IMG/VR virus record: IMGVR_UViG_2734482770_000005
Span: 1-24,191 of that record
Direction: 5' to 3' (one strand)
DNA from: a virus
Taxonomy: Duplodnaviria > Heunggongvirae > Uroviricota > Caudoviricetes
DNA length: 24,191 nucleotides
The notes under the pieces were generated by a model. The model was not told the origin of the DNA. It was given only the letters and a program-made list of their open reading frames with translations, and searched no databases. This document shows positions 6,189 to 23,218 of this stretch, piece by piece (within the stretch, counting starts at the first letter, position 1; the number at the start of each line of letters is the position of its first letter). The position numbers and the translations under genes were made by a program.

Positions 6189-6428
6189 TTGGGGCTTTTT
6201 ATTTGTCTGGCACTAACAGGAACATTATTTATGAAACAAGAAATGATTATCAGCAAAGACGGGGAAACGATGATTGTTAGTGATGAAAACCTCATTAAGG
6301 TTGCCGCACTGTTGGGAGTTACTCCCGAAAGTCTTCGTTCTACCACTGCTCAATTATTTAAATCGGCTGATGCGGTTAGTCTTGCTGATGCCCTTAAATC
6401 TAAAATTAAACAACTGAAAGGAAAATAA
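6189..6428 (+). CDS. hypothetical small protein (79 aa; more likely starts at 6231, MKQEMII..., 65 aa)
   Basis: ORF in track; in-frame ATG at 6231 follows aacaggaac. Confidence 0.45.
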   Translation: MGLFICLALTGTLFMKQEMIISKDGETMIVSDENLIKVAALLGVTPESLRSTTAQLFKSADAVSLADALKSKIKQLKGK

Positions 6429-6432
6429 TCTT

Positions 6433-6816
6433 ATGGCTAACCCATATGGAAAATTAAAAGCAGTGAATGCGGATAACTCCCGTTCACGCTGTAAGGTAGT
6501 AGCTTACGCTGCTGATCCAGTGCTGCAAGATCGCCTCGTCAAACTGGCTTCACCTCTCACTGACGATCTTATTGTCGGGGCTTTGCTGAAAGCCGATGGC
6601 ACCAAAGCAACAACCGCATCTGATATTGCTCACGTAGTAGTTGAACCGGCTTATGAAGGACAGGAAAGCGTAGTGGTTGCACATCCTACTTTCGTTATTC
6701 TGGCTGAAGATGGGATTGAATTTAACAGCATGGAAAAGGCAAGTGTTATTGCAAAACTGCAATCTCTCGGCTTTGTAATTGCTGGTTATGAAGAACTTGC
6801 GATCCCTACGACTTAA
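6433..6816 (+). CDS. hypothetical protein (127 aa), first gene of a structural-like block
   Basis: Ribosome-binding site aaaggaaaa; 4 bp after the previous stop; same strand and tight spacing as following genes. Confidence 0.55.
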   Translation: MANPYGKLKAVNADNSRSRCKVVAYAADPVLQDRLVKLASPLTDDLIVGALLKADGTKATTASDIAHVVVEPAYEGQESVVVAHPTFVILAEDGIEFNSMEKASVIAKLQSLGFVIAGYEELAIPTT

Positions 6817-6830
6817 CAAGGAAAATAATA

Positions 6831-7862
6831 ATGAATGATTTATCAACATATTTTGGCGTTAATACTGCGGTAGTAACTCCATTTGCTTATGAGAATGCAC
6901 TTAATACCCTGATTACTAATCTCGATCTGTTCGATGTGCAATATCATACAGAAAACAGCATTCTTCTTACCGACCTGATTGATCAGTTTGTGCAGGTAGC
7001 TGGGGAAACCTCGCCTTACGCTCAAAGCGACTGGAACGCCTCTAAACGTCAGGAATGGTCAAACAAACTTTTCCAGATGAAACACGTCGGCAGTATTAAC
7101 GCTGTTACTTCTCGTGACCTGGAACAATACAGCCGCCAATATCCAAACCGTTCTGATGCTATGCTGGTAGCGGTTAATGATTTCTCTGAGGCTCATTACC
7201 GTTCACACGCAAACCGTGTTGAAGTGGATCTGATTACCGCGCTGCTGGGCCTGAAAGTTGAATCTGAATATGCCGGACAAGGTGATCTCGACTTCCTCGA
7301 CGGTCAGGCTAAAACCACGGTACCCGCTATCGACTTTGCATCGACTACTGTTAACCCGTTCCTTGCTATTCGTAAAGCGGTGCGCTTACAGAGTGAAAAG
7401 CTGGGGTCTGGTCTTGCTGCAAAGCGAACTGGTGTAATTATCTTTGCTGCTGGCACTGCTGCTGATGGTTTGTCATCTAACCCGCTGATCAGTGACATGG
7501 TGAAATATGCAGGCGATGCGAGTGCTACGGCCCTGTTTACCCGTATGGTTGATTCTAACCCAGCCTATGACTCTTTCCAGATTGGTGGGATCACTGTTAT
7601 TGATGTGTCAATGTTTCCTGAGATTGTTGCTCACATCGGAGAGAACGGTTTCGCAATTGTTCCGGTAATGGATAAAGCGGCACAGTGTTACCAGCTTCAT
7701 AGCGGCGTTGGTGTGCGTCATGCTGAGTTAGGTCAAGATGCCGTGTTGCATCACCAATATCTAATCAAGGATGAATTCCAATTCCCATCTGTGGTTACTG
7801 AGACATCTTATCTGCCAGTAAACAACATTCCGCAAGCTATCATCTTCGGATCTGCTGCGTAA
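6831..7862 (+). CDS. hypothetical protein (343 aa), possible virion or structural component
   Basis: Ribosome-binding site aaggaaaa; long uninterrupted ORF with a different codon and GC profile from the P4 part. No catalytic motif recognised. Confidence 0.6.
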   Translation: MNDLSTYFGVNTAVVTPFAYENALNTLITNLDLFDVQYHTENSILLTDLIDQFVQVAGETSPYAQSDWNASKRQEWSNKLFQMKHVGSINAVTSRDLEQYSRQYPNRSDAMLVAVNDFSEAHYRSHANRVEVDLITALLGLKVESEYAGQGDLDFLDGQAKTTVPAIDFASTTVNPFLAIRKAVRLQSEKLGSGLAAKRTGVIIFAAGTAADGLSSNPLISDMVKYAGDASATALFTRMVDSNPAYDSFQIGGITVIDVSMFPEIVAHIGENGFAIVPVMDKAAQCYQLHSGVGVRHAELGQDAVLHHQYLIKDEFQFPSVVTETSYLPVNNIPQAIIFGSAA

Positions 7863-8013
7863 TAAAGCGTTAATAGACGATTCCCCATCGGGGCAATAAG
7901 GGTAAAGGGATTAACTAACCTGTAGGCGCAAATACAGTAACGAATCTCTTTGCCCTTTTTGTTTTTCTACTGTCTACAAACCCAAATAAAAATATATATG
8001 TGAGAGAAAACCA

Positions 8014-8211
8014 ATGAATACAGAAAACCCACAATCCTTTATTCTTAAGGCTGTAAAAGAACTGGCAGCTATTAGCGAGGAATCAGTTATAAACACATCG
8101 GCGCTTTGCCGCCTTTTAGAAATTGATGCAAATAATGTGCGCCAGCGTGTCTTTCAGACTGGGTGCAGCACTTTCGAAGCAATTCAATACTATTGCTCTA
8201 AAAAACAATAA
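8014..8211 (+). CDS. hypothetical small protein (65 aa)
   Basis: ORF in track in the gap between two larger + strand genes; weak ribosome-binding site. Confidence 0.3.
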   Translation: MNTENPQSFILKAVKELAAISEESVINTSALCRLLEIDANNVRQRVFQTGCSTFEAIQYYCSKKQ

Positions 8212-8245
8212 TAAACAACAATCATAATACAGGGAAACAATTAGC

Positions 8246-10087
8246 ATGTTAGAACTTAACGTCAGCCGCTTATCAAACGTTGTCACCTTCCAGGTTGATC
8301 GACCATCATTAGAGAAAGCAAAAGCAGAAGTAGAAAAACTTCGTAAACAAATGGCGGCGGTGAAAGATATAGAATTGCGTGTTAAGACACATAAACAATC
8401 AACTTCTAAAGCAAAAAAAGACGTAGACGATATTGCTAAAAAGCAAGCACAGGCAGATAAAGCCAATGCTAAAGCACAATTAGCCGCTCAACGTGTAGTT
8501 GCAAGAGAACAAAAAGCCCTGGCAGCACGCAAAGAGAAGGCAGACTTAAAACTGTTAGACGTTGGATCAAGCATTAGTGCATTGCACCGCCTTTCTGTAG
8601 CGGAACAATATAAAGCTATTGCACAGGCTAGAGAAATTGCCCTCCAATATGAAAGAGGAGCTATTAGTCTGGCACGTATGAATAGCCAAATGAAACGCCT
8701 ACAACAGCAACAACGTAAGATTAATGGCAATCGTAACGCTCACGCTAAAGCCTATGCACCTGTTAAGGGTAGCGGGAGTATTGGCGGCGGTGCTGCGGCT
8801 GTTATGCTGGGTGGCTTAGGCGCTGGCGCTACGTATATGGCTATGAGCAAAGCCTCTGAATTTGTTACTAACAGCTTTGCGAATGCTGAAACGCTGGGTG
8901 AATTGTATAGCCGTGCGAAGCTGGGCGGTGTAGACGTTAACCAGATGAACAATATTGAGCAATGGGCCTACAAAAACGGCGTTGATTCAATGATGGGGGA
9001 TCAAGGTAAACGTAAGTATCTCGATCAGATGAAAGATGTGCGTGAGCGTGCAACCAAAAGCTATGATGAGGCTGAATATGTAGTCGATAAAAAAACAGGC
9101 AAAGGTGAATGGAAGGGCGGCGATAGCGGCATCAATACTTTAATGAATGAAGGATTCTTAACTAAAAAGGATCTAAAAGACTTTGCTGATAATCCGGCTG
9201 GTCTGGTTAGTAAAGCAGTTCAGGGAATGGTGAAGAAAGGCTATTCAGATGCACAAATCGGTAGTCGTCTGGAAGATCTGGCTGATGATTTGATGCTCAC
9301 CTCTAAATACTGGACACGCTCCGCTAAAGAAGTGGAACAATCAGCACGAGAACAACGAGAATCAGGGCGCTGGGTAACACAGGCACAACAGGAAAGCGTT
9401 ATTAAATTCCGTGAACTGAATAATGCACTTAGTGGGCTTTCTGACTCACAAGGGATCGCCTTTGTTGATGGCTTTATGAAATCTCTTGATCCGAAAGTGA
9501 TTGAAGAGTTTAAAAAGAGCATGGTTGCAATGCTGCCAATGTTTACCAAATTAGGCGAGGCTATCGGCGGATTGGTTAACGCCGTAATGAAAACAATCAA
9601 CTGGCTGATGAAAAACGACGAGAAGACGGAAGCTATTCAGAAGAATTTAGGGGATGCACCGCCACTATCTAACGAAGGAATGAAGCAGAATCTTTCTAAT
9701 CTCACTCCTGATCAATATAAAGGCGCTGGCACCGGAACAACTAAGCCAGATAACAGCAATTCCCTGGTTAACACTATTAAAAGCTGGTTTATGCCAGAAG
9801 AAACGGTAGGTGGGGCGCAGGCTGTAAATCAATACAGTCTCGAAGGACAAAACATTGCAAATCTGAAACAGAGTGCAGCACAACAAGCTTTCAAGGCTCC
9901 TTCTTACACCTTTGCACCTGTTATTAACTTCAATCCAGAATTACAAGTAAATGCAGAAGTGCCGCTAACTATCGAATCAGACACCGGACGATTGAGCGAA
10001 TTTATCGACTTCAAATCAAAGGCATCCTCCGCTGAGTTTAGCAAGCTATTAACGCTGGGTGTTATGTCAGGCGGGTCAACCTATTAA
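8246..10087 (+). CDS. large coiled-coil protein with Gly/Ala-rich hydrophobic segment (613 aa); tape-measure-like or membrane-associated structural protein
   Basis: N-terminal 150 aa are Lys/Ala/Gln/Glu-rich heptad-like sequence (EKAKAEVEKLRKQMAAVK..., KAQLAAQRVVAREQKALAARKEKADLK); then GSGSIGGGAAAVMLGGLGAGATYMAM, a glycine-zipper-like hydrophobic stretch. Confidence 0.6.
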   Translation: MLELNVSRLSNVVTFQVDRPSLEKAKAEVEKLRKQMAAVKDIELRVKTHKQSTSKAKKDVDDIAKKQAQADKANAKAQLAAQRVVAREQKALAARKEKADLKLLDVGSSISALHRLSVAEQYKAIAQAREIALQYERGAISLARMNSQMKRLQQQQRKINGNRNAHAKAYAPVKGSGSIGGGAAAVMLGGLGAGATYMAMSKASEFVTNSFANAETLGELYSRAKLGGVDVNQMNNIEQWAYKNGVDSMMGDQGKRKYLDQMKDVRERATKSYDEAEYVVDKKTGKGEWKGGDSGINTLMNEGFLTKKDLKDFADNPAGLVSKAVQGMVKKGYSDAQIGSRLEDLADDLMLTSKYWTRSAKEVEQSAREQRESGRWVTQAQQESVIKFRELNNALSGLSDSQGIAFVDGFMKSLDPKVIEEFKKSMVAMLPMFTKLGEAIGGLVNAVMKTINWLMKNDEKTEAIQKNLGDAPPLSNEGMKQNLSNLTPDQYKGAGTGTTKPDNSNSLVNTIKSWFMPEETVGGAQAVNQYSLEGQNIANLKQSAAQQAFKAPSYTFAPVINFNPELQVNAEVPLTIESDTGRLSEFIDFKSKASSAEFSKLLTLGVMSGGSTY

Positions 10088-10134
10088 TCATCACTGTGGG
10101 GCTGTTTAGCCCCCTTAAATAAGGATTACAAATT

Positions 10135-10812
10135 ATGGCAATGGGTCCGTTAACCATTGGTCGCCCGACTGAGGCGAAAATCAACAGCACAAGCAACGAT
10201 AGCAACGGTAGAACAACCAAAGGGGGTAACGGCTTTGCGATCATTACCTCTAATCTCGGCAGTGGTGCAAATGCTGCTTACAATGACTACCAGGCATTAT
10301 CATTTGATAGCGTGGAATCGACGAAAGTTAGCAGAAATGCGGACGTTACAAGCTATGCCGTCGAATCAGGATCAGAAGTTAGTGATCATGTTCAAATACG
10401 GAATAACAAGTTCACATTACAAGGGCGTATCTCTGAAACCGTATTGAAGCTCAATCCTGATATGATTAAGAATGCTGGAATTAACGGCAATCGACGTATG
10501 CTTATGCTTGAATACCTAAATCAGTTGATGGACAGTCGCCAACCTTTCCTACTTGTCACTGAGTTAAAAAATTATGACAACGTTGTGTTAGTTGGCATGT
10601 CTTACGAAGAAGAAGCAAGCGAAAGCCTATTGTTTACTCTTGATTTTGAGCAAATCCGTCTTGTCTCTAAAGCAACTACAAGCGCAATTGCGGTAAAAAC
10701 AGCACCAAATAAATCTGTAGGAGGCCAGGTTAAAATGCAGGTAAATACAACAGAACAGAAAAATCAAAAAAGCCCAGGGCAAGACGTTGTAACGCCAGTA
10801 TTTAAACAATAG
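10135..10812 (+). CDS. hypothetical protein (225 aa)
   Basis: aagga ribosome-binding site; follows the 613 aa gene after a short hairpin-containing gap. Confidence 0.55.
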   Translation: MAMGPLTIGRPTEAKINSTSNDSNGRTTKGGNGFAIITSNLGSGANAAYNDYQALSFDSVESTKVSRNADVTSYAVESGSEVSDHVQIRNNKFTLQGRISETVLKLNPDMIKNAGINGNRRMLMLEYLNQLMDSRQPFLLVTELKNYDNVVLVGMSYEEEASESLLFTLDFEQIRLVSKATTSAIAVKTAPNKSVGGQVKMQVNTTEQKNQKSPGQDVVTPVFKQ

Positions 10813-10853
10813 CCTTAAACGCCTATGAAACGCTCTGTAACGAGATAATCATA

Positions 10854-10885
10854 AAAGAGGCATCAGTCTATATTGAAGCCTCTTT
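10854..10885. terminator. hairpin between convergent genes, candidate intrinsic terminator (best fit for the - strand integrase transcript)
   Basis: Perfect 8-bp stem aaagaggc / gcctcttt around a 16-nt loop; on the - strand the stem is followed by a U-rich run (uuuuaugauuau). Confidence 0.4.
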
Positions 10886-10892
10886 ATTACGT

Positions 10893-12257
10893 CTATAGCG
10901 TTGTTTTACGCCTTAAATTTGATTTTTTATTGATTGATAAGCCTTTCTCTATTTCAGGGTAGCGTAAAAGCTCAATATATTTTTTAAGCTCTATTGGAGA
11001 AGCTGCATTTTTGCTATATGTGCGGAATGTTTCTGTATTGCCGCGTGTATGGCCCAGGAGAAGGGCGATCCTGTCTTCTGGAATTTGATTTCGATCAAGA
11101 AGCTGTGCTACTCCGTGTCTCAGAGAATGAAACACTTTCCTTTCTGTTCCCTTTTCCCCTAAAGCCTTTCGTTTAGCTCTTGTAAATCGTTGTGTATGCC
11201 ACGTAGAGCGTTTACCGTCAGCACGTTCTGTAATGCTGGCGTGATAGAACAAAAAGCCATTGTGAGGCTTTTCACGCAGCGACAACACCAACGGAGTGAT
11301 AAGGTTATGCACAGGCACAACACGTGCCGCAGCTTTCGTCTTTCCCTGTGTGATTTCAAAACACAGCACACCTTCGATCTCTTTCACATCGTCTATTGTG
11401 AGACTTGCTATCTCATTGATCCGCATACCTGTATATAAACCGATAAGACACAAAGCCGTCATTTCTTTGTTTTCTGCTGAATTACCGGAAAATACTTGCA
11501 ACACCTGCAATAGCTCTTTGTTAGAAAATGCCTCGTAGCTCTCTCTACTTTGTGCCACATCAAGCCTATGCCCTCGCCAGGGGGAGAGCGCCCTTTCTGG
11601 CGCATCGTGGTAACGTGATGAAGCTAATTCCCATAGCTGGGCCATTGGACTGATATAATTTGCAATTGATTGTTGTGAAAGAGTTTTTTGCATGTGTTCA
11701 ATCCAGCCTGTAACAGTGGTGCGGCTTACATCTTGCAATGCAATATCAGGCTTTTTACGGTAGGAGAGAAACATCTCTACCGCTTTTCTTGCCTTAGCTA
11801 AAGTGGCTGGCTTCTTCTTCGTGCTGTTAATTGTCAGGTAGATTTCAAGAATTTTAAGCAATGACGGACACGAAGACGCTGTATCTTGCACTCTGGTAGC
11901 TGTTTTGGCGTATTTAGCCTTACTGCGTAACAGTTCCAGCGTGTTTTCTATTGTGCTGTTTACAGGGGCAACACTCTCCCGTAAGCAATGGTATTCATCT
12001 GCAATCTGATCACGCTTTCTACGTGCAACACGAAGATTACTTGTGTGTAGACTTCTGACAAACGTCCTTTTTCCTTCAAAAAAGGGCTGCATATACACAG
12101 GCAGCGTGATCCTTAAATAGTAGTTACCGTAAGAATCACAGATTAAGTATTGGTTAGGCTTGTATCTCATAAAATCTCCGGCTAAAGTGTCGGAGCGTTT
12201 GTAATGTGAAAATTGATTGTGACGCATAGAAAATGATGATTTTTCTATAAGATTCAA
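10893..12257 (-). CDS. tyrosine recombinase / phage-type integrase (454 aa)
   Basis: C-terminal catalytic region carries integrase signatures: GMRINEIASLTIDDV, HSLRHGVAQLL (H-x-x-R box) and LLGHTRGNTETFRTYSKN (tyrosine nucleophile region). Confidence 0.8.
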   Translation of the reverse strand: MNLIEKSSFSMRHNQFSHYKRSDTLAGDFMRYKPNQYLICDSYGNYYLRITLPVYMQPFFEGKRTFVRSLHTSNLRVARRKRDQIADEYHCLRESVAPVNSTIENTLELLRSKAKYAKTATRVQDTASSCPSLLKILEIYLTINSTKKKPATLAKARKAVEMFLSYRKKPDIALQDVSRTTVTGWIEHMQKTLSQQSIANYISPMAQLWELASSRYHDAPERALSPWRGHRLDVAQSRESYEAFSNKELLQVLQVFSGNSAENKEMTALCLIGLYTGMRINEIASLTIDDVKEIEGVLCFEITQGKTKAAARVVPVHNLITPLVLSLREKPHNGFLFYHASITERADGKRSTWHTQRFTRAKRKALGEKGTERKVFHSLRHGVAQLLDRNQIPEDRIALLLGHTRGNTETFRTYSKNAASPIELKKYIELLRYPEIEKGLSINKKSNLRRKTTL

Positions 12258-12314
12258 TCAATTAGTAATGGTCGTAGGTGATGGCATTAACACGAGATTA
12301 ATCGAGTGTTTTAC

Positions 12315-12332
12315 TCCTATTATCGGCACCAT
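12315..12332. repeat. candidate attL core of the P4-like element (direct repeat of 23639-23655)
   Basis: tcctattatcggcaccat here matches tcctattatcgcaccat at 23639-23655 with one 1-nt indel; both copies sit at the expected outer edges (int side and crr side). Confidence 0.4.
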
Positions 12333-12495
12333 CTCCACTTCTTCAAACATCCGTATTTATCCATAACCGCACTGTTTTATAAAAGATTTTTTGTTTTTAC
12401 TGTTCGTATTAGTCCATAACTTTCCAGTAGAATCCAGTACTAAATGTGTATAGGATTATGTATATGTTCCTGTTCGATTTTGGAATTCTATACAC

Positions 12496-13680
12496 ATGCC
12501 CCTAAATGATATGCAGATTCGCCGTGCTAAACCTGAAGCTAAAGCCTATACACTTGGGGATGGGCAAGGGTTGTCTTTACTTGTAGAGCCAAATGGAAGT
12601 AAAAGCTGGCGATTTCGTTATCGCTATGCCGGTAAACCCAAAATGATCTCGCTTGGTGTTTACCCAACGATCACTCTTGCTGATGCTCGTTCCCGTCGTG
12701 ATGAAGCTCGAAAACTTGTGGCAGAAGGAAAGAACCCTAGTGAGGTTCGAAAAGAGCAAAAGCTGGCTCTGCAAACAGAGTCAGAGAACGCCTTCGAAAA
12801 GATAGCCAGAGAGTGGCATCAACAGAAGTCTACCAAATGGTCGGCGGGATATGCATCAGACATCATGGAAGCGTTTAAGAACGACATTTTTCCTTATGTG
12901 GGAACAAGGCCAGTGGGAGAGATTAAACCGCTAGAACTGCTTAATGTGCTGCGTAAAATCGAAAAGCGCGGTGCATTAGAAAAAATGCGCAAAGTTCGGC
13001 AGCGATGCTCAGAAGTTTTCCGCTATGCCATTGCTACTGGAAGGGCTGAGTTTAACCCTGCTGCGGATCTTTCAAGCGCCCTCAATGTACACCAATCAAA
13101 TCATTTCCCGTTCTTAAAGGCTAATGAGATACCTGATTTTCTTCGCGCCTTAAACGGATATACCGGAAGTCGGCTTGTCCTGATTGCCACGAAATTGCTC
13201 ATGATTACAGGTGTTAGAACCATCGAATTACGTGCGGCATTATGGTCAGAATTTGATTTAGATAACGCTATTTGGGAAATTCCTGCTGAAAGGATGAAAA
13301 TGCGCAGATCACACCTTGTGCCTTTGTCGACTCAAGCGTTAGATTTGCTAAATGAACTCAAGATGATGACAGGGAAGTATAGTTATGTTTTTCCGGGGCG
13401 GAACGATCCGAACAAGCCTATGAGTGAGGCGAGTATTAACCAAGTTATCAAGCGTATTGGTTATGGTGGAAAACTTACTGGTCATGGATTTCGACATTCC
13501 TTATCTACTATCCTCCACGAAAAAGGATATGATTCGGCTTGGATAGAAATACAGCTTGCTCATATAGATAAGAATAATATTAGAGGTACGTATAATCATG
13601 CTCAATATATTGATAAACGCCGTGATATGATGCAGTGGTATTCAGATTATATTTTTATTAAGGAGAATGTGAATGAGTAA
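12496..13680 (+). CDS. int: P4-type tyrosine integrase (394 aa)
   Basis: N-terminal arm-binding region typical of P4/CP4-57 integrases (MQIRRAKPEAKAYTLGDGQGLSLLVEPNGSKSWRFRYRYAGK); C-terminal catalytic motifs HGFRHSLSTIL and LAHIDKNNIRGTYNHAQYIDKRRDMMQWY. Confidence 0.9.
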   Translation: MPLNDMQIRRAKPEAKAYTLGDGQGLSLLVEPNGSKSWRFRYRYAGKPKMISLGVYPTITLADARSRRDEARKLVAEGKNPSEVRKEQKLALQTESENAFEKIAREWHQQKSTKWSAGYASDIMEAFKNDIFPYVGTRPVGEIKPLELLNVLRKIEKRGALEKMRKVRQRCSEVFRYAIATGRAEFNPAADLSSALNVHQSNHFPFLKANEIPDFLRALNGYTGSRLVLIATKLLMITGVRTIELRAALWSEFDLDNAIWEIPAERMKMRRSHLVPLSTQALDLLNELKMMTGKYSYVFPGRNDPNKPMSEASINQVIKRIGYGGKLTGHGFRHSLSTILHEKGYDSAWIEIQLAHIDKNNIRGTYNHAQYIDKRRDMMQWYSDYIFIKENVNE

Positions 13681-15301
13681 CGAGTTTGATAGTAGTAAAC
13701 TAGAAAATTGCTTTGAGCTTGCATTGGAAAATATTATAAAGCACGGCGATACAGATATTTTCCCTTACCCATTTGAAAGTCGGTTATTTGAAGATGATAA
13801 GGAGAAAGTAAAAACTGCATTAATGCAAACATTTAATGACTTTGAAAATAAAAGGATCGAGATTCCACCAAACATAATTAATAGCTTTTCAAGTATTGGT
13901 TATTATGGTTACAGGTGGGCGACCCAAATTGATCCATTCTGGAATGCTTTTTTTCTTGGGTTAGTTTTAAAAATCGCTGATGATATTGAAAGGAATAGAT
14001 CTACTAAAACGCAGGTTTATTCATATCGCTTTAAACCAAACCTTGCTGATGGTTCTCTTTTTGATAAAGAGATCTCTTGGAGAAAATATCAAGAAGACAG
14101 TATCTCTGAATGTTCTAACGATGAAATAAAGTATGTACTTACATGCGATATAGCAGATTTCTATCCGCGTATTTATCACCACCGTTTAGAAAATGCGTTA
14201 GATAGAGTCGACCCCAATAAAGATTACTCTGGGAAAATCAAGAAATTACTACAGACATTTAGTGAAACAAAATCATATGGAGTACCAGTTGGATGTCCTG
14301 CCTCTAGAATATTAGCAGAACTAGCTCTAGATTCTATTGATAAATTATTGTCTATGAATAGAATCAACTATAAGCGTTATGTCGACGACTTTGTTATTTT
14401 TTGTAACTCTAGAGAGGATGCTCATAAGATTTTAACTTTGCTTAGTAAAAAACTGATGGAAAATGAAGGGCTAACTTTACAGAAACAAAAAACCAATATT
14501 GTTACTAAAGAAGAGTTCCTTTCAGTAACTAAAGCTAAGTTGCATGGTAATGATGAAGATGAAGAATCTCCTATGAAGGCTAAATTTATGAGTCTTCCTA
14601 TAAGATTCGATCCTTACTCAGCAAATGCGATAGAGGAATATGAAGAGATAAAGGAATCTTTAAAAGATTTTGACTTGTTAGCTATGCTGAGTAGTGAGTT
14701 ACAAAAATCAAAAATTAACCAATCTTTTAGCAAGCATTTGATAAAGGCATTCTCAGCAACATCAGATGAAATAATAAGTAGTGCTTTCAAAGTAATGTTT
14801 AATAACTTGCATGAGTTATATCCAATATTTACAACTATAATTCAAGTAGCTAACTCCAACTGGCAAAAATTAAGCACAGAAACCAAAGATATTATTCTTG
14901 ATAAAATAACTGCACTAATTAAACAAGATTCATATATTTTGAGTACTGAGCTCAACTTAGCCTATGTAGCCCGAATGCTCTCAAAAGAAAATTCAGAAAA
15001 ATCCACCCTAATCCTTAGTGAAATATACAATAACAATCCAGAAAGCATCTTAGTCAAGAACATAGTTACACAGTCAATGGCAAAAATTAATTCTTACGCA
15101 TGGCTTTCTGATATCAAAAAAAATTTCTCTGCAATGCATCCGTTGCAGAGAAGACTATTGATCGTTTCCAGTTACATCTTAGGTGATGAAGGACGGCACT
15201 GGAGAGAGCATAATAAGAAAACATTCAACTTTGTAGAGGTGATTTACAGGGATTGGGCAAGTAAAAGGCATACCGCAAGAAATCTTGAGGATGCGCTATG
15301 A
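13673..15301 (+). CDS. reverse transcriptase (542 aa) with helical C-terminal extension; non-retron, non-intron defence-type RT suspected
   Basis: RT motif A CDIADFYPRIYHH, motif B SYGVPVGCPASRILAELALDSID, motif C with catalytic YVDD (YKRYVDDFVIF). Start overlaps the int stop by 8 nt with aagga ribosome-binding site. GC is visibly lower than in neighbouring P4 genes. Confidence 0.85.
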   Translation: MSNEFDSSKLENCFELALENIIKHGDTDIFPYPFESRLFEDDKEKVKTALMQTFNDFENKRIEIPPNIINSFSSIGYYGYRWATQIDPFWNAFFLGLVLKIADDIERNRSTKTQVYSYRFKPNLADGSLFDKEISWRKYQEDSISECSNDEIKYVLTCDIADFYPRIYHHRLENALDRVDPNKDYSGKIKKLLQTFSETKSYGVPVGCPASRILAELALDSIDKLLSMNRINYKRYVDDFVIFCNSREDAHKILTLLSKKLMENEGLTLQKQKTNIVTKEEFLSVTKAKLHGNDEDEESPMKAKFMSLPIRFDPYSANAIEEYEEIKESLKDFDLLAMLSSELQKSKINQSFSKHLIKAFSATSDEIISSAFKVMFNNLHELYPIFTTIIQVANSNWQKLSTETKDIILDKITALIKQDSYILSTELNLAYVARMLSKENSEKSTLILSEIYNNNPESILVKNIVTQSMAKINSYAWLSDIKKNFSAMHPLQRRLLIVSSYILGDEGRHWREHNKKTFNFVEVIYRDWASKRHTARNLEDAL

Positions 15302-16038
15302 TATCTGAATTAACGTTTTCTCGAAAATTCACTTCATTTTGGAATCAATTGCTTCCAAATGCTAATAATTTCATACGCATCATTAACGGCAGTCTCATCG
15401 AGGACGTTTATCCTCCTCTAGATGACTGCGCTAATAGGTCAAATAACGTCTTTGTTAATGAGTGCGCATTTAATTTATATAGGGCAATACAGAATGATTC
15501 GTTAGACAGAAATATTCTTTCAGCACATGATATCTTCCATAATGCTGATTTTCAGGTTGTTTTTGAAAAAACAAAAGAATATCTACAGCGGTTCGCTTAC
15601 GGTTCTAACTTCAAGCTACCCTTAAGCATGGTTGAGTACAATGCCATAAGGGAAATAGCAAGAAACATTTTGTCTCGATATGGAATGGAAAACCAAATTG
15701 AAGTGTCTCCACAATTCGATGGATGCGGAGTAATAAATAATTCATATGGCGATATTTATTATTCAAATGTTCTTGTGGAAATAAAATCAGGAGATAGGAA
15801 GTTTAGTGTTTACGATCTTAGACAGGTGCTAATATATTTCACTTTAAACTTTTACTCAAAAAACAAAAGAAACATCAAGAGATTTGAGCTTTTCAATCCT
15901 CGGATGGGTATCACTTATAGTGATACCATTGTCAACCTTTGCAAAGAGTTGGCGTTTATTCAACCTGAAGAATTGTACTTTGAGATAATGAATTCTATTA
16001 CAGAAGAAAATTTCATAGTAACTGAAATGCAACGCTAG
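15298..16038 (+). CDS. RT-associated accessory protein (246 aa), putative effector; function unknown
   Basis: ATGA start/stop overlap with the RT gene (translational coupling). Soluble, no obvious transmembrane segment. Weak motifs: R-x5-H (DRNILSAHD) and D-x11-E-x-K (GDIYYSNVLVEIK). Confidence 0.6.
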   Translation: MISELTFSRKFTSFWNQLLPNANNFIRIINGSLIEDVYPPLDDCANRSNNVFVNECAFNLYRAIQNDSLDRNILSAHDIFHNADFQVVFEKTKEYLQRFAYGSNFKLPLSMVEYNAIREIARNILSRYGMENQIEVSPQFDGCGVINNSYGDIYYSNVLVEIKSGDRKFSVYDLRQVLIYFTLNFYSKNKRNIKRFELFNPRMGITYSDTIVNLCKELAFIQPEELYFEIMNSITEENFIVTEMQR

Positions 16039-16047
16039 ATATCATGC

Positions 16048-16075
16048 AGACCGCTACAATCCATTGTAGTGGTCT
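16048..16075 (+). terminator. stem-loop just after the accessory gene stop, possible terminator or RNA structure
   Basis: agaccgctacaat cc attgtagtggtct gives a 13-bp stem with one G-U pair, 10 nt after the TAG stop, followed by atttct. Confidence 0.35.
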
Positions 16076-16157
16076 ATTTCTAAACGTTCCTTCTGACGAA
16101 TAAAGCCAAAATACCAAATAGAATTAAAGAAAATTATAATATCAGCCTTAGCGCGCA

Positions 16158-16176
16158 ATGCTCCCCCCGCCACGCC
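16158..16176. other. cos: candidate cos site (P2/P4-type 19-nt cohesive end sequence)
   Basis: Minus-strand reading of 16158-16176 is GGCGTGGCGGGGGGAGCAT, which matches the P2/P4 cohesive end as I recall it (GGCGAGGCGGGGAAAGCAC) at 15 of 19 positions. It sits between the cargo and psu, where cos lies in circular P4. Confidence 0.45.
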
Positions 16177-16278
16177 CGCCCGCTTTGCGGGGCGGTTTTA
16201 ATGCAGTTGCACTGACACGCTCAGACCGCGCCGGGAATGGCGCGGTCTGCAGAAAATGAGGCAGGGAAACGCATGCAA

Positions 16279-16310
16279 AGCCATGCACCTTATCGATGCA
16301 TGGCTTTTTT
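16279..16310 (+). terminator. Rho-independent terminator (+ strand orientation) before the psu 3' end
   Basis: Perfect 9-bp stem agccatgca / tgcatggct with 9-nt loop, followed by a run of five T (16306-16310). Confidence 0.55.
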
Positions 16311-16340
16311 CAGTAAAAACGGGCGGATTTTCGGGGAATT

Positions 16341-16913
16341 TTACACAGACTGACGTGATGCCAGTTGCGCACTTTTACGCGAAAAAATCATGTTCTGCGC
16401 AGGGGTGAATTTTTCACGGCTGTCATCCACCGAAGCCGCGTCAGGCCTGAATCCGATGGTCGTTAAAATGTCGCTATCCTGTGCGGAATAATTAATTTTT
16501 TCCCCCTTCGCAAGCCAGGACAGAAGGGCTTCACGCAGGGCATCTGTGGCACGCTGTATGGCACAGTTTCGGGCAATGGCCGTCAGCTCACTGTAGCCCA
16601 TCAGCTCCGGTGCCAGTGCGGCCGCCAGTACTGTGCCGTGCTGCTGCATAAAATCATTCAGCCGGTCGCGGATGCTGATGTGCTGAACGGCTTCATGCGA
16701 ACGAATATAACGACCGGCGGCCTGATTCACCTGCCATTTTCTGACTTCGATAATATTGCGTAATTCGTCCAGGCGGCTGACGTTTCTGCCTTCTCCTGAC
16801 AGAAGCCGCAGATATTCCTGTTCGGCCGCTGCCAGCTCATTTTTGCGTTGCAGCCATGCTGCTTTGTTATTCTGACAGGTGTCAAAGGCCTGCTGTAAGG
16901 CTGTGCTTTCCAT
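16341..16913 (-). CDS. psu: P4 Psu (polarity suppression / capsid decoration protein), 190 aa
   Basis: 190 aa, the P4 Psu length; the sequence MESTALQQAFDTCQNNKAAWLQRKNELAAAEQEY... matches P4 Psu as I recall it; position immediately 5' of delta and sid on the same strand. Confidence 0.8.
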   Translation of the reverse strand: MESTALQQAFDTCQNNKAAWLQRKNELAAAEQEYLRLLSGEGRNVSRLDELRNIIEVRKWQVNQAAGRYIRSHEAVQHISIRDRLNDFMQQHGTVLAAALAPELMGYSELTAIARNCAIQRATDALREALLSWLAKGEKINYSAQDSDILTTIGFRPDAASVDDSREKFTPAQNMIFSRKSAQLASRQSV

Positions 16914-16986
16914 CGTTATCTCTTTCTCATCATGCTGAAGAATAAAAATACGGTGTGCGGCGACGGCCGGTGTTAACCGGCAGCCC

Positions 16987-17487
16987 TCATTCCAGACGCA
17001 GCGAATATGATTGTGTTTTTAAGCGTACTGGCGGCAGTTCCTGTTTTTCATGCAGGCTTTCTGCCAGTTCGTCCGGCGTGACCGGGCGGACAATGAAGCG
17101 GTTGATGGTCTGAAGCGTTTTAAACACCAGACCACAGCCCGGATCCGTGCACACATAAAAACGCTCGGTGACTTCCTGAGACAGACGCCGCGATGTTCTT
17201 GACAGTGCAAGGCCTTTACATCTCCGACAACAATATCCGGTAACAAGCATTCTTTTCGGGCGTTTCATACTGCCGGAGGCTGACGTCAGTGAATCGCGGT
17301 ATCTCTGTTTGCCTGAAATGTATTCCATTCCTGAATCTTTACAGTCAGAGAAAAAGCTTTCACTCGCTTCAAATGTCGCAGAGCAATAAATATTCCGGCA
17401 CTGTGCAATCATTATCTTGGTGCCATCGTCCATGAAATGTGCGCGACGGGTGTGAGCAACATGTCCACACGACGGGCAGTAAATCAT
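16987..17487 (-). CDS. delta: P4 Delta late-gene activator (Ogr/Delta zinc-finger family), 166 aa
   Basis: Two Cys-rich Ogr-like modules (CPSCGHVAH...CRNIYC and CCRRCKG...CTDPGC); 166 aa as in P4 Delta; overlaps the sid stop by 4 nt. Confidence 0.85.
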   Translation of the reverse strand: MIYCPSCGHVAHTRRAHFMDDGTKIMIAQCRNIYCSATFEASESFFSDCKDSGMEYISGKQRYRDSLTSASGSMKRPKRMLVTGYCCRRCKGLALSRTSRRLSQEVTERFYVCTDPGCGLVFKTLQTINRFIVRPVTPDELAESLHEKQELPPVRLKTQSYSLRLE

Positions 17488-18218
17488 GACAGCAGTCCTC
17501 TGGCCTTAAGCTCTGCTCCCTGCTGGTCTATTTTGTCCTGCCACACCTTGCGCTGTGCCGGTGTGCCTGCCACCTCATAATCCATGTGCGGGAGTGTTGC
17601 CGCTGACAGTCCGGTCAGCCGGAGAACCGGCTCGCCGGTGAGGCTGATTTGCATCTGTTTTATTTTCTGTTCCAGCGATGATTTCACCTGCTGCATGACA
17701 GCTTTATCGGGTGCGACGTAGCCCTGATGGCCGGTGGTGTTGGCGAGCGGATTTTCCTGTACCAGGATGCTCAGATGCATTGCCCGGACAAGCGCCTCAC
17801 AGGTTTCATTCAGGGCGTGTTCCAGCTCATTCTCTGCATACAGACTCAGAAGGTGATGATGTGCCTTCCGGTAGGCGGTGGCCGTGCTGTCACACGCCCC
17901 TTTCAGGCGTTCACGTTCAAAATTCAGCACCACGGCCAGATTGTCATATTCCTGTACCAGCTCCCGGCGTGCCACGCGCTCAATGTGGCGCTGTTTCAGC
18001 TCGTCGCTCAGGACACCACCGGCTGCACGAAAGGCCGTGCGCCAGTCGTCAGCGTCGTTTCCGTCGGCCTGCGCCAGCGCATTTTTTTCCTGCTCTGCCC
18101 GTTCAATGGCCGTGACGGTCTCATCCATCAGGCGGGCGTTCTCAAGATGGGCGGCTCTGGCCTTTTCCAGTTGTGCCAGCGCGGGTTGCAGATATTCAGG
18201 GATGGTGTTGTCAGACAT
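17484..18218 (-). CDS. sid: P4 Sid (capsid size determination external scaffold), 244 aa from MSDNTIPEY
   Basis: The track ORF 17484-18284 extends upstream of the likely start; the ATG at 18218 is preceded by aggagccggaaa and gives 244 aa (the P4 Sid length as I recall it). The protein is largely helical and coiled-coil-like. Confidence 0.8.
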   Translation of the reverse strand: MSDNTIPEYLQPALAQLEKARAAHLENARLMDETVTAIERAEQEKNALAQADGNDADDWRTAFRAAGGVLSDELKQRHIERVARRELVQEYDNLAVVLNFERERLKGACDSTATAYRKAHHHLLSLYAENELEHALNETCEALVRAMHLSILVQENPLANTTGHQGYVAPDKAVMQQVKSSLEQKIKQMQISLTGEPVLRLTGLSAATLPHMDYEVAGTPAQRKVWQDKIDQQGAELKARGLLS

Positions 18219-18290
18219 TTTCCGGCTCCTCGTCACTTCAGGTTGAGAAAATTGTGACGTACACCGGACAACAACACGACGCATTGCAGA

Positions 18291-18308
18291 TGTGCCAGCC
18301 CTGACACA
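18291..18308 (-). promoter_or_regulatory. candidate Delta/Ogr-responsive late promoter element (Psid) with dyad symmetry
   Basis: TGTGCCAG CC CTGACACA is an imperfect dyad of the TGT-N-ACA type about 75-90 bp upstream of the sid start, where P2/P4 late promoters carry their activator-binding dyad. Confidence 0.35.
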
Positions 18309-18387
18309 GGAGACTCATCCTCAGACCGGCAAGCCAGGAAAAGGTCGCAGGAAAAAACGGCTTACTGTTTGTTTTTTTATATTTTAC

Positions 18388-18491
18388 TGTTCACCTCTGT
18401 TCACCATAAGAAAAAAGATAAGTAATACAGTAAGTTAAAGGGTGAACAATCGCAGTAATGACTGTTCACCGTCTGTTCACCACTGTTCACC
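18388..18491. repeat. cluster of TGTTCACC octamer iterons (5 direct, 1 inverted), candidate alpha-binding replication element (ori-like)
   Basis: tgttcacc at 18388, 18398, 18463, 18474 and 18484; ggtgaaca (inverted) at 18441. The same octamer recurs in the crr-like repeats at 23219-23525. Confidence 0.6.
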
Positions 18492-18769
18492 CGTTGATGG
18501 GCTTTTTATGCTGTTTATTACTGTTTATTTTTATTAATTCACTGAAATAAATAAGAAAAAACAATTTGCATTTCACTATAAAAAATTCCAGGTCCTTCAG
18601 AACCCTTTGAGACCCTTCCAGTCCAGATGGATAAAAAACACACAGCCATTGTAAGGCTGCCGGAACAAATCCCCCCTGTTGCGTCTGCCAAAAATATTCA
18701 CAAAATAAAGCGCTACCCGAAGCCGGACGGACTTATCCGGTGCTGTATGGACATTAACGAGGTAGCCCG

Positions 18770-19036
18770 ATGCAAGCTGTTTTTTCTTCCCCGTCTCCTG
18801 CCCCTGTGACGCCACTGATGCCGCTGCCGGACATCACGCAGGAGCGTTTTTTACGTCTGCCGGAAGTGATGCACCTGTGCGGCCTGTCACGCTCGACCAT
18901 CTATGAACTCATCCGTAAGGGGGAATTTCCGCCGCAGGTGAGCCTTGGCGGTAAAAATGTGGCCTGGCTGCACTCTGAAGTCACTGCATGGATGGCCGGG
19001 CGCATTGCCGGACGCAAACGGGGGTACGACGCATGA
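18770..19036 (+). CDS. AlpA/Vis-family small transcriptional regulator (88 aa; alternative start at 18815, MPLPDITQ...)
   Basis: Typical AlpA-family sequence: [47 protein letters not shown]. Confidence 0.75.
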
Positions 19037-19130
19037 TGATGCCCGCTCTGCAAAAAGTCCCTTTTTCTGGCTTGCCTTTTTCCGGCATTTGCGGATATAG
19101 TTTTTCCGCTGCCGCAAAATCGGCAGCCGG

Positions 19131-19422
19131 GCGTGAGAACCCGGGCAATCTAACGGCGACATATGACGCGCCATGCGTCTTTTTTTGTGTCGCAATCAAC
19201 GCCACAGAGCGCCAGATTATGGTGTGGTGTGTGGTCAGTCGTGCAGATGGCACTCCGTGCATCCTGCCCGCGTCCGCTCATTATGCCGCAGAGTCAATGG
19301 TAGCTCAGGCGGGGCAGCCTCCGGGCTGGCCGGTATCCGTTAGAGCCGGTATTCTCACCCCCGTCTGGGCTATCGCCATCGAGCGTGAGAACTCCGGCGA
19401 TAGCGTAACCTGCTATCTAACG
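19131..19422 (+). ncRNA. putative P4-type immunity-RNA region (seqA / seqB / seqC-like arrangement)
   Basis: Direct repeats gcgtgagaacccgggcaatctaacgg (19131-19156) and gcgtgagaactccggcga...ctatctaacgg (19383-19422) flank ccgttagagccgg (19337-19349), which is complementary to the ccggc...tctaacgg part of both repeats. No well-supported protein ORF covers the interval. Confidence 0.3.
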
Positions 19423-19435
19423 GAGGCTGCCATCA

Positions 19436-19632
19436 TGGCTACAACCCTTACCCCCTCACACCCTGAATTTGTCTTTGTGTTTGCCGCTGTCCGTCGCGCA
19501 GACCGCCATCCCCGTATCTGTATGCTTCGCACCGTCGCCGGTGATGAACGCAGCGCCCGCCGTTCCCTTGTCCGTGACTATGTGCTCTCCCTTGCTGCCC
19601 GTCTGCCGGTTGTGGAGGTGTCCCGTGCGTAA
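19436..19632 (+). CDS. hypothetical small protein (65 aa) in the P4 left-operon region
   Basis: ATG at 19436 preceded by ggagg; in frame with track ORF 18988-19632, whose upstream part looks like a GC-rich spurious extension. Confidence 0.3.
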
Positions 19633-19912
19633 TAAAAAAGCCCCTCAGACCGTCTCAGCGCGTCATGACGCCCGTGAACACCTCAGCATTGAGGCTTACC
19701 ATAAGCTCAACCGCGCCAGCGCCGTATCCCAGTTTGTTGGGGGTGATTTGATTCACCGTGAACTCTCCGGCCTGCATCAGCTCTACATTCCGCATATTTT
19801 CAGTTACCTGAATGAAGATATTGATTTTGTGCTGAATGAACTGAAAGCCAAAGGCCTGTGCCGCGATTTTCTCGCCCAGCAGAAAGACCGGGGAGACAGG
19901 ACGCATGTTTGA
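19626..19912 (+). CDS. hypothetical small protein (95 aa, GTG start), possibly epsilon-like
   Basis: ggaggtg ribosome-binding site 5 nt before GTG at 19626; in frame with the 3' part of track ORF 19469-19912. Confidence 0.4.
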
Positions 19913-20360
19913 TTTTCCCCAGCCCGGTGAGATTTACCGTTCTGCCGGTTTTCCCGATGTGGCCGTGGTCGGCATTCTGGAAGACGGTATTCCGTGGGAA
20001 ATGCCGTACCGCTGCCCGGAAATTGTCTGGAACCCGTACCGCCGTAAATTCAGTATCCTTGTGCGTATCCTCGCCGACGGGCGCACCACAGACATCCCGC
20101 TGGGGCGTTTTCTGCGGGAATTTACCTGTGACCGTCCTGACCTGTTCAAACGCAGCCCCGTAAACCGGCATGCGGTACTGAAAGAAATGGCCGGAGACCC
20201 GGAATTACAGAAATGGCGGGAGAAATATCTGGATATTTACCCGCAGGACCCTGTTCCGGTCAGCCGGGCGGCACCGGTGGCGCGGGAATGGCGGGAAATT
20301 CCCCGCACGGAGCCTGACCCGGAAATCACCCCGGATAACAGTTACCGCAATTATCTGTAA
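19905..20360 (+). CDS. hypothetical P4-family protein (151 aa, same size as P4 orf151)
   Basis: Coherent ORF with start overlapping the previous stop; lies between the regulator region and alpha as in P4. Confidence 0.55.
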   Translation: MFDFPQPGEIYRSAGFPDVAVVGILEDGIPWEMPYRCPEIVWNPYRRKFSILVRILADGRTTDIPLGRFLREFTCDRPDLFKRSPVNRHAVLKEMAGDPELQKWREKYLDIYPQDPVPVSRAAPVAREWREIPRTEPDPEITPDNSYRNYL

Positions 20361-20495
20361 TTAAAAAACGACACCCGAAAAATTAAATGTGCGTATTCGC
20401 GCAGGGATACGCACGTCTTCAGGAGACGCAGATATGCCTTATCAGTTAATGCAACCGGCACGGAATGCAGTCATCTGTCACAGGGAGGAAAGCAA

Positions 20496-20816
20496 ATGAA
20501 AACACCCTTACCGCCCGTCTTACGCGCTGCCCTTTACCGTCGCGCTGTCGCCTGTGCCTGGCTGACCGTGTGCGAACGTCAGCACCGCTATCCGCATCTC
20601 ACCCTTGAGTCACTGGAGGCGGCCATCGCCGCTGAGCTGGAGGGCTTTTATCTGCGCCAGCACGGTGAGGAAAAAGGGCGTCAGATAGCCTGTGCCCTGC
20701 TGGAAGATTTAATGGAATCCGGCCCCCTGAAGGCCGCGCCGTCGCTGTCCTTTCTCGGGCTGGTTGTGATGGATGAACTCTGTGCCCGTCACATAAAAGC
20801 GCCGGTACTGCACTGA
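20496..20816 (+). CDS. hypothetical P4-family protein (106 aa) immediately upstream of alpha
   Basis: Ribosome-binding site gggagg 7 nt before ATG; ends 15 nt before the alpha start. Confidence 0.55.
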
Positions 20817-20830
20817 AGGAGAACAACACC

Positions 20831-23164: not shown

Positions 23165-23180
23165 CCCTCATAACTCATCT

Positions 23181-23204: not shown

Positions 23205-23218
23205 CATCCCTGAATCCC

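Follow-up and report, generated by a model that had tools for sequence, protein, structure and literature searches.

The two-gene cassette at positions 13673-16038 of the window (the whole stretch of 24,191 nucleotides that was analysed) is almost certainly a defence module, namely a DRT type 8 (DRT8) system that a P4-like satellite, integrated in the chromosome of E. coli, carries in its int-cos hotspot. Its identity as DRT8, i.e., a UG7 reverse transcriptase (RT) paired with a PD-(D/E)XK nuclease, is assigned with very high confidence. The pair of UG7 and 'cluster 17' PD-(D/E)XK proteins was named DRT type 8 by Mestre et al. 2022 (PMC9226505); the family protects E. coli K-12 against T5 when supplied from a plasmid, without P4 or P2, and this defence is lost if the active site of either the RT or the nuclease is mutated (PMC9226505). 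The system is thus already known: it has been named and experimentally validated as a family, PADLOC models exist for it, and its location in P4 has been published. Since DRT8 was already named and validated, the find is an ordinary one, and the first-pass annotation, which presented the pair as a candidate undescribed RT system, was mistaken on that point, as both proteins match named PADLOC models. The same annotation had left membership of a named family undecided, and the PADLOC assignment places the RT in one, UG7/DRT8. Its view that the pair serves in defence and occupies the int-cos hotspot of P4 was borne out by the PADLOC Drt8 and RTasPDDEXK matches, the P4 context and the published description of the hotspot (PMC9122126). 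Taken as a whole, the explanation developed here, comprising DRT8 in a P4-like satellite together with the mechanism proposed below, is considered likely.

Satellite context and organization of the cassette

Positions 16177-23400 of the window are 97.7% identical to phage P4 (X51522, 4409-11624), and this match stops at the end of the P4 record, which is the cos end (window 16177), leaving the cassette and int outside it. Because the P4 match ends at cos, the RT/partner pair sits between int and cos, where it had been placed earlier, and the order of the element is int, cassette, cos (~16177), psu, delta, sid, and alpha primase (Table 1). The interval from int to cos/psu is a defence hotspot of P4-like elements (Rousset et al. 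2022, PMC9122126), and the cassette was found to be variable cargo of this very interval; moreover, UG7 is among the RTs known from P2/P4 variable regions (PMC9226505). The cassette was detected in 105 of the 5,426 complete E. coli genomes (~2%), and the DRT8 module is carried by P4-like satellites, a lambdoid prophage, and a relaxase/MobC element.

Table 1. Coordinates of the cassette, its functional motifs and the surrounding P4-like genes in the window.
Feature	Position	Strand	Evidence
Tyrosine integrase (int) of P4-like satellite, 394 aa	12496..13680	+	Pfam Arm-DNA-bind_3, Phage_int_M, Phage_integrase
drt8 RT gene, UG7-group Class 1 UG/Abi reverse transcriptase, 542 aa, ATG start	13673..15301	+	ORF list, PADLOC, Pfam, AF2, Foldseek
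Codons of catalytic YVDD (RT motif C; aa 236-239; YVDDF = 236-240)	14378..14389	+	Homolog alignment
Codons of DPYS (aa 313-316) in the disordered RT-to-αRep linker	14609..14620	+	Homolog alignment, AF2
ATGA overlap, 4 nt: RT stop and partner start (translational coupling)	15298..15301	+	
Partner gene, DRT8 RT-associated PD-(D/E)XK nuclease, RecB/Cas4-like branch, 246 aa, ATG start	15298..16038	+	
Codons of nuclease active-site motifs: D152, E161-x-K163, Q176-xxx-Y180	15751..15837	+	Homolog alignment
Hairpin directly 3' of partner stop: 11-bp stem including one G-T pair, 6-nt loop, then ATTTCT	16048..16075	+	Read from sequence
P4 homology from cos end; psu 16341-16913, delta 16987-17487, sid 17484-18284	16177..18284	-	P4 match, ORFs, RefSeq annotation of identical locus
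alpha primase	20831-23164		

The two open reading frames and their ATGA coupling were confirmed as first annotated, and both are far above chance because of their profile E-values (4.9e-166 for the RT and 5.5e-69 for the partner). The ATGA junction is kept in all seven loci compared, which originate from alpha-, beta-, and gamma-proteobacteria. The start of the RT gene overlaps the 3' end of the integrase gene by 8 nt and is preceded by a Shine-Dalgarno sequence (AAGGAG) at a distance of 7 nt. The GC content is 0.31-0.37 across 13501-16000 (~33%) versus 0.44-0.46 in int and 0.47-0.57 in psu, delta, and sid, in agreement with the earlier remark that the cassette is richer in AT than its P4 flanks. 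No sigma-70-like promoter was found on the plus strand immediately 5' of the RT gene, and the number of hits in the promoter scan equalled the shuffle expectation; the cassette may be expressed by read-through from int or by a weak internal promoter. The hairpin that follows the partner gene may mark where transcripts of the cassette end; it was missed by the terminator scan because its T-run is weak, and it is not conserved in the other DRT8 loci in the flank comparison of seven loci.

Assignment and architecture of the two proteins

The RT matches the PADLOC Drt8 model with an E-value of 4.9e-166 (552 bits), aligning aa 11-532 to profile positions 4-492 of 493, with RT_UG21 as the second-best PADLOC model (1.2e-37), and it matches Pfam RVT_1 at 1.2e-18; judged by its sequence, it is a member of the UG7 group. 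The RT motifs quoted in the first-pass annotation are all present, i.e., motif A (CDIADFYPRI, aa 158-167), motif B (GVPVGCPASRILAELAL, aa 203-219), and motif C, in which V237, D238, and D239 are invariant among 38 RT homologs and of which YVDD aligns with YIDD of DRT4/UG15.

In the AF2 model (pLDDT 88) the fingers and palm (approximately aa 1-291) are followed by a flexible linker (~292-318) and an αRep domain (~319-541) that is entirely helical; the helical nature of the C-terminal region was thus predicted correctly, and its length is ~223 aa rather than the claimed 240 or so. This succession of fingers/palm and C-terminal αRep, as seen by AF2 and Foldseek, is the Class 1 architecture, and UG7 is discussed under this class. 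In Foldseek, the RT is matched best over its full length by UG15/DRT4, DRT6, Abi-P2, AbiA, and AbiK (E ~1e-11 for DRT4 and DRT6; TM 0.61/0.66 for DRT6), with DRT9 and retron RTs as lower-ranked matches.

Within the linker, D313, P314, Y315, and S316 are invariant in the RT homologs, and the DPYS motif was found in all seven loci compared. The pLDDT of the RT model falls below 50 at aa 293-298 and 314-316 only. In AbiA, a tyrosine of the equivalent RT-to-αRep linker primes synthesis (PMC12783706). From conservation and disorder only, we infer that Y315 is a candidate protein-priming residue; Y118, in an invariant SYR motif, is an alternative candidate. The priming residue of DRT4, Y125, could not be mapped onto the RT by sequence, as the phmmer and profile alignments span motifs A-E alone (aa 149-277).

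The partner matches the PADLOC model for RT-associated PD-(D/E)XK proteins (RTasPDDEXK) at 5.5e-69. Its residues D152, E161, K163, Q176, and Y180 are all invariant among 40 partner homologs, the ExK and QxxxY motifs are found in each of the seven loci, and the N-terminus (MISE...TSFWN..LPN) is invariant as well. The predicted fold is RecB/Cas4/MGME1-like, the nearest folds being MGME1, Dna2, AdnAB, Cas4, ACE1, and RecE, and these relatives are enzymes acting on ssDNA or DNA ends. They were recognised by fold comparison only, the sequence search having returned no credible PDB matches. This adjacent 'cluster 17' PD-(D/E)XK gene with intact active-site motifs places the cassette, on the basis of its sequence, in the nuclease variant of DRT8. 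The expectation that the RT needs a soluble partner is supported by the requirement for the PD-(D/E)XK active site in the DRT8 family (PMC9226505). Approximately half of the UG7 RTs have no associated nuclease (PMC9226505), so its role could be an accessory one in part of the lineages. Protection against T5 by the allele described here is presumed from the DRT8 family data; a search of literature full text for WP_000064054, made to find the locus tested as DRT8 in 2022, gave zero matches.

Template RNA, other retroelements and the proposed mechanism

For seven loci, the 250 nt preceding and the 300 nt following the cassette were compared by blastn-short, which gave short matches only and no conserved non-coding flank across the seven; the best matches were between two P4-like loci, in common int and cos-proximal sequence. 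The gaps around the cassette range from -8 to 164 nt upstream and from 62 to 369 nt downstream, the window and locus L007 leaving no space upstream and locus L008 just 62 nt downstream. An Rfam search over 12300-16400 returned nothing relevant, whether run at the gathering threshold or relaxed to E<=1.

Accordingly with the first-pass view that the RT is neither a retron, nor a group II intron, nor an RT-nitrilase, no retron, group II intron, or diversity-generating retroelement with its cognate RNA was found nearby. The retron model retron_St85_RT scores 56.5 bits versus a cut-off of 235 (NCBIfam), there is no Rfam match, and the RT start overlaps int. The group II intron model TIGR04416 reaches 78 bits versus a cut-off of 300, on the RT core only, Rfam gave no intron RNA, and the C-terminus of the RT is an αRep and not a maturase. 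For a diversity-generating retroelement with TR/VR, the region 12000-17000 contains zero direct repeats of at least 25 nt, and the RT is assigned to UG7. The remaining candidates were also rejected: DRT4 (UG15), with NCBIfam Drt4 at 76.3 bits versus a cut-off of 450, and with two genes and a conserved partner in the cassette; Abi-P2, with PADLOC AbiP2 at 7e-24 versus 4.9e-166 for Drt8; and DRT3 and DRT5, with scores far below that of Drt8 or under curated cut-offs. The NCBIfam Drt2 score is far under its cut-off.

According to a May 2026 review the mechanism of DRT8 is not yet established, making it one of the few DRT types without a published one. Since none has been published for DRT8, we infer a mechanism that combines protein-primed, untemplated ssDNA synthesis with a nuclease effector, to which, as a whole, slightly less than an even chance is given. 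The RT would copy no RNA and, like all Class 1 UG/Abi enzymes characterised so far, would start DNA synthesis on one of its own tyrosines, the best candidate being Y315 of the invariant linker motif DPYS; from there it would make a single DNA strand in untemplated fashion. The effector role would fall to the RecB/Cas4-like nuclease, which the complex of RT and ssDNA would restrain or keep occupied as long as the cell is uninfected. The trigger would be a change made to the ssDNA by a phage factor, e.g., a protein that binds ssDNA or DNA ends, as in DRT4; DNA degradation would thereby be released or activated and the infection aborted. The mechanism is supported by the structural neighbours of the RT, which are protein-primed and template-independent wherever their product chemistry has been resolved; that of DRT6 is less resolved than that of the other Class 1 neighbours. 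In some DRT8 loci a PNP ATP-nucleosidase takes the place of the nuclease (bioRxiv 2023.01.24.525353), pointing to a toxic output module that can be exchanged. It is a doubtful suggestion that the mechanism is new among DRTs, with Y315-primed untemplated ssDNA directly gating a RecB/Cas4-like nuclease via its invariant N-terminus, and with the DNA serving as a regulatory ligand or tether, not as a toxic product.

Three other explanations were weighed. The nuclease could be a processing factor that trims, releases, or shapes the ssDNA made by the RT, for example through its detachment from the priming tyrosine or the creation of defined ends, and the DNA product itself would then be antiviral, as a sponge or a toxic ssDNA of the kind suggested for DRT4 and DRT9. 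The nearest folds of the partner do process ssDNA or DNA ends, RT and partner are strictly coupled in translation and inherited together, and the toxic species in DRT4 is the DNA product, the level of which is set by exonucleases; however, the ATP nucleosidase found in place of the nuclease is hard to reconcile with a processing role, the lack of a nuclease beside about half of the UG7 RTs also speaks against it, and this explanation is considered rather unlikely. An RNA-templated RT, like those of DRT2, DRT9, DRT3a, and the retrons, would have to take its ncRNA from within coding sequence or from the 138 nt that separate the end of the partner gene from cos. That some UG/Abi systems need an ncRNA, and that a hairpin follows the partner gene, speak for it, but the narrow and unconserved flanks, the empty Rfam search, and the retron and Drt2 scores far under their cut-offs all argue the other way, as does the structural proximity to template-independent Class 1 enzymes, with DRT9 and retron RTs ranking lower; RNA templating therefore appears very improbable.

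The pair could also serve something other than host defence, as a weapon of P4 against helper or competing elements or as a selfish addiction module. Its slot is that of gop-beta-cII in P4, a likely toxin-antitoxin pair, and many mobile elements carry the module. Such carriage is typical for defence systems, however, and the robust T5 protection that the DRT8 family confers on E. coli K-12 does not depend on P4 or P2 (PMC9226505), which leaves a primary role outside defence highly implausible. For the preferred mechanism of untemplated synthesis and a nuclease effector, the allele described here, a compact native E. coli version of DRT8, offers testable handles in the Y315/DPYS loop, D152/E161/K163, the invariant N-terminus of the partner, and the absence of an ncRNA.

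Comparison with known systems

The closest known system is DRT8 itself (PMC9226505), of which the family PADLOC models are matched nearly end to end by both proteins. The two share the two-gene layout, YVDD, D...ExK, and a location in the P4/P2 variable region, and no difference between them was found. The gop-beta-cII genes occupy the same int-cos slot in reference P4 and are unrelated to the cassette.

DRT4 (UG15) and DRT6 (UG12) have the RT plus αRep architecture in common with the cassette RT and are its best structural matches, and DRT4 and UG7 both protect against T5; ORF55 of T5 is the trigger of DRT4 and DRT6. DRT4 and DRT6 act alone, whereas DRT8 requires a separate nuclease, and the priming residue Y125 of DRT4 lies in the palm, while the best candidate of the cassette RT lies in the linker.

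The Class 1 proteins AbiA, AbiK, and Abi-P2 (from Lactococcus and P2-phage) resemble the cassette RT in fold and make ssDNA from a protein primer without a template, and the priming tyrosine of AbiA, in the RT-to-αRep linker, has the position of DPYS in the cassette RT. Abi-P2 is, moreover, carried in a P2-family hotspot. The sequence likeness of these three is limited to the RT core (2e-7 for AbiK), and, unlike the cassette, all of them lack a PD-(D/E)XK partner.

Finally, retrons with nuclease effectors occur in the same P4 hotspot and, like the cassette, combine an RT with a separate effector, their effectors being swapped among loci; they differ in their msr/msd RNA, for which the cassette has neither the sequence nor the upstream space.

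Assignment of the cassette to DRT type 8

The cassette at positions 13673-16038 comprises a reverse transcriptase (RT) gene and a partner gene, in which the RT stop and the partner start share an ATGA overlap, the last 8 nt of the integrase gene (int) overlap the RT start, and an AAGGAG ribosome-binding site is located 5' of that start. This two-gene arrangement, reported in the first-pass annotation, was borne out, as were the RT motifs quoted there (CDIADFYPRI, aa 158-167; GVPVGCPASRILAELAL, aa 203-219; YVDDF, aa 236-240), the helical C-terminal part (about 223 aa in the predicted structure), and the AT-richness of the cassette (GC content 0.31-0.37, versus 0.44-0.46 for int and 0.47-0.57 for the genes downstream).

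Coordinates of annotated features in the window
Feature	Position	Strand	Details
Serine recombinase/resolvase	719-1276	-	PF00239, 1e-38
HTH_36 protein	3270-3938		within AT-rich stretch 1501-6500
ORFs of 127, 343, and 613 aa	within 6433-12257		no match in Pfam and PADLOC
Stand-alone Dit-like phage tail/baseplate protein	10135-10812		PF21821, 1.2e-27
Second tyrosine integrase	10893-12257	-	
Tyrosine integrase (int)	12496..13680		394 aa; Pfam Arm-DNA-bind_3, Phage_int_M, Phage_integrase
RT	13673..15301	+	542 aa
Partner	15298..16038	+	246 aa
psu	16341-16913		downstream of cassette
delta	16987-17487		downstream of cassette
sid	17484-18284		downstream of cassette
P4 immunity RNAs (c4-a1b1 targets, isrK, C4 antisense RNA)	19095-19380		Rfam, above gathering thresholds
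alpha primase	20831-23164		downstream of cassette

The same annotation proposed an undescribed RT-based anti-phage system and called for a profile search of both proteins, which provided a name for the system. The RT matched the PADLOC model Drt8 (E 4.9e-166, 552 bits; aa 11-532 aligned to positions 4-492 of the 493-position profile), with RT_UG21 as second-best model (E 1.2e-37), and the partner matched RTasPDDEXK over its full length (E 5.5e-69). In Pfam, the RT matched RVT_1 alone, and no domain match was obtained for the partner. UG7 RTs occur in two variants, one of which is accompanied by 'cluster 17', a remote PD-(D/E)XK homolog; UG7 reconstituted in E. coli K-12 gave robust protection against T5, defence was lost on mutation of the RT catalytic site and likewise of the PD-(D/E)XK active site, the system was named DRT type 8 (DRT8), and UG7 RTs were found in the P2/P4 variable regions that Rousset et al. 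had delimited (Mestre et al. 2022, PMC9226505). Since both proteins correspond to the UG7 RT and PD-(D/E)XK nuclease of that study, the claim of an undescribed system is refuted and, judged by these profile matches, the cassette is the already known DRT8, in a type of location that was reported before.

None of the NCBIfam models reached its cut-off, including group II RT/maturase (78 versus 300), Drt4 (76 versus 450), and retron St85 (56 versus 235). The C-terminal domain of the RT consists of an α-helical repeat (αRep) instead of a maturase, upstream space for msr/msd is absent, and an Rfam scan of positions 12300-16400, at the gathering threshold and at E<=1, detected no family, a single sub-threshold chance match to a plant miRNA family aside. 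These results agree with the earlier exclusion of a retron and a group II intron. A DGR does not fit either, since a search for a TR/VR pair returned no direct repeats of at least 25 nt.

P4 setting and neighbouring regions

Positions 16177-23400 of the window, read on the opposite strand, are 97.7% identical to positions 4409-11624 of phage P4 (X51522 / NC_001609). This match stops where the P4 record ends, i.e., at the cos end, and P4 genes lie downstream of the cassette, which therefore fills the int-cos slot where reference P4 has gop-beta-cII. An intact P4-type immunity region was confirmed by the Rfam matches to its RNAs. The int-cos slot is a hotspot of anti-phage systems (Rousset et al. 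2022, PMC9122126), and the initial reading of the cassette as a defence module in this hotspot was correct in view of the Drt8 match and the P4 context.

A separate block (6433-12257), located upstream of the P4-like element, was found over at least 80% of its length in 139 of 5,426 E. coli genomes and could represent an integrative island whose cargo is uncharacterised. Its Dit-like protein, a solitary tail-protein homolog, recalls tail-assembly-interference defences. Positions 1501-6500 form a long AT-rich stretch (GC 0.32-0.40) with few ORFs of at least 100 aa. An identical DRT8 cassette is present in E. coli ECCRA-119 (NZ_CP029242.1), where the P4-like int is preceded by a different island. 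Among the proteins encoded there are a recombinase, a DUF4062 protein, and another 'reverse transcriptase domain-containing protein' (568 aa; locus L001, 7862-9568) that is unrelated to the DRT8 RT. The sequence beside this P4 insertion site is therefore variable among strains and rich in defence-like genes.

Distribution of the DRT8 module

Of 5,426 complete E. coli genomes, 105 carry the cassette (2,366 nt), always on the chromosome and in 104 cases at >=99% identity; the window itself comes from an E. coli chromosome. RefSeq names the two genes merely 'RNA-directed DNA polymerase' and 'hypothetical protein'. In E. coli EN-1077 (NZ_CP159209.1, 902976-906602) the match is split into two pieces that span 3,627 nt and enclose an annotated IS3-family transposase, representing a DRT8 copy broken by an insertion sequence.

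The partner family is compact, with 96 cluster representatives, nearly all of 243-249 aa, whereas a search with the RT gave 1,615 matches at E<=1e-10, indicating a larger family. An RT of 542-551 aa immediately 5' of the partner, the two genes again overlapping by ATGA, was encountered in six further loci, in widely differing contexts: in Pseudoalteromonas near a KAP NTPase, in Thalassospira amid metabolic genes, in Snodgrassella adjoining relaxase and MobC genes, in Brenneria near smpB, within an integrase island that has a ParE/Phd pair in its vicinity, in Yersinia in another P4-like satellite, the cassette start again lying 3 nt past int, and in Providencia between DnaB and the Q region of a lambdoid prophage. 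Pairwise divergences of the RT are correlated with those of the partner (Pearson 0.93, Spearman 0.47; 21 pairs from the seven loci). The two genes therefore move together, carried by mobile elements of many kinds. All seven cassettes, including that of Thalassospira, have a GC content of 27-34%, suggesting either that they have long been transferred horizontally as a unit or that the composition of the module is constrained. A conserved non-coding flank was not found across the seven loci, and the gaps vary from -8 to 164 nt upstream of the RT and from 62 to 369 nt downstream of the partner, which makes an ncRNA at a fixed flanking position unlikely.

The metagenomic protein P0180 (896 aa) combines a DRT8-type RT, 56% identical to the query RT across 99% of its length, with a protein kinase domain (PF07714/PF00069) in one fusion. 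It adds another variant of effector or sensor to the nuclease and to the PNP swap already published.

Candidate residues and proposed mechanism

DRT8 lacks an established dedicated mechanism according to a May 2026 review (PMC13213688), and literature and PDB searches returned neither a DRT8 mechanism paper nor a PDB entry. On the mechanism, this analysis adds candidate residues and the argument against an ncRNA. In the AF2 model of the RT (pLDDT 88, pTM 0.88), fingers and palm extend to about residue 291 and are followed by a linker and then by helices at 319-541. Among PDB structures, those that Foldseek matched best over the full length were UG15/DRT4 (E 7e-12), DRT6 (TM 0.61/0.66), Abi-P2, AbiA, and AbiK; group II intron RTs aligned over the core alone, and DRT9 and retron RTs ranked lower. 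The top matches with resolved chemistry, and DRT7, are protein-primed, template-independent ssDNA polymerases (PMC12783706; bioRxiv 2026.02.16.706125), the product chemistry of DRT6 being less resolved (PMC13213688). Their priming tyrosines reside in mobile elements: the fingers in AbiK (Y44) and Abi-P2 (Y61), the palm in DRT4 (Y125), the RT-to-αRep linker in AbiA (Y298/Y303), and a mobile two-helix module in DRT7 (Y682) (PMC12783706; bioRxiv 2026.02.16.706125). In the DRT8 RT, pLDDT falls below 50 solely at aa 293-298 and 314-316, both in the linker corresponding to that of AbiA, and D313, P314, Y315, and S316 are invariant among 38 homologs, down to 44% identity, this DPYS motif being kept in 7/7 loci. 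Y315 is therefore the leading candidate for the priming residue, as far as conservation and the predicted model indicate, with Y118 in the invariant SYR motif as alternative candidate.

The partner belongs to the RecB/Cas4 branch of PD-(D/E)XK nucleases, members of which act on ssDNA or DNA ends; its fold relatives include RecE, AddA, RecB, Cas4, and lambda exonuclease. Among 40 homologs, ~40% identical overall, D152, E161, K163, Q176, and Y180 are invariant, in a D...ExK...QxxxY pattern that we take to be the RecB/Cas4-type signature. Cas4, AddB, and Dna2 have a four-cysteine cluster, which is not conserved in the DRT8 partner, as C143 alone is a near-invariant cysteine. Conservation equal to that of the active site was observed at the N-terminus (M-I-S-E, TSFWN..LPN; aa 1-21, window 15298-15360), where M1, I2, S3, E4, T12, S13, F14, W15, N16, L19, P20, and N21 are invariant or nearly so. 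The 4-nt overlap fails to explain this conservation, which suggests a functional surface; contact with the RT or DNA gating would be speculative roles.

DRT8 membership, intact catalytic motifs, and a coupled two-gene unit were demonstrated. The RT would, like its Class 1 relatives, produce protein-linked, untemplated ssDNA, with the nuclease as putative output module. The main rival explanation, that the nuclease processes the RT product instead of killing the cell, suits the ssDNA-end-processing fold relatives of the partner but clashes with the exchange of the nuclease for another effector, as a PNP ATP-nucleosidase (Cap17-type) stands in for it in some DRT8 loci (bioRxiv 2023.01.24.525353). 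A trigger similar to that of DRT4, where a T5 DNA-binding protein stabilises the RT-made ssDNA (PMC12783706), would be plausible by analogy because DRT8 also acts on T5. The PNP replacement and the P0180 kinase fusion suggest that effectors are interchangeable under control of the RT, much like the swapped effectors of retrons.
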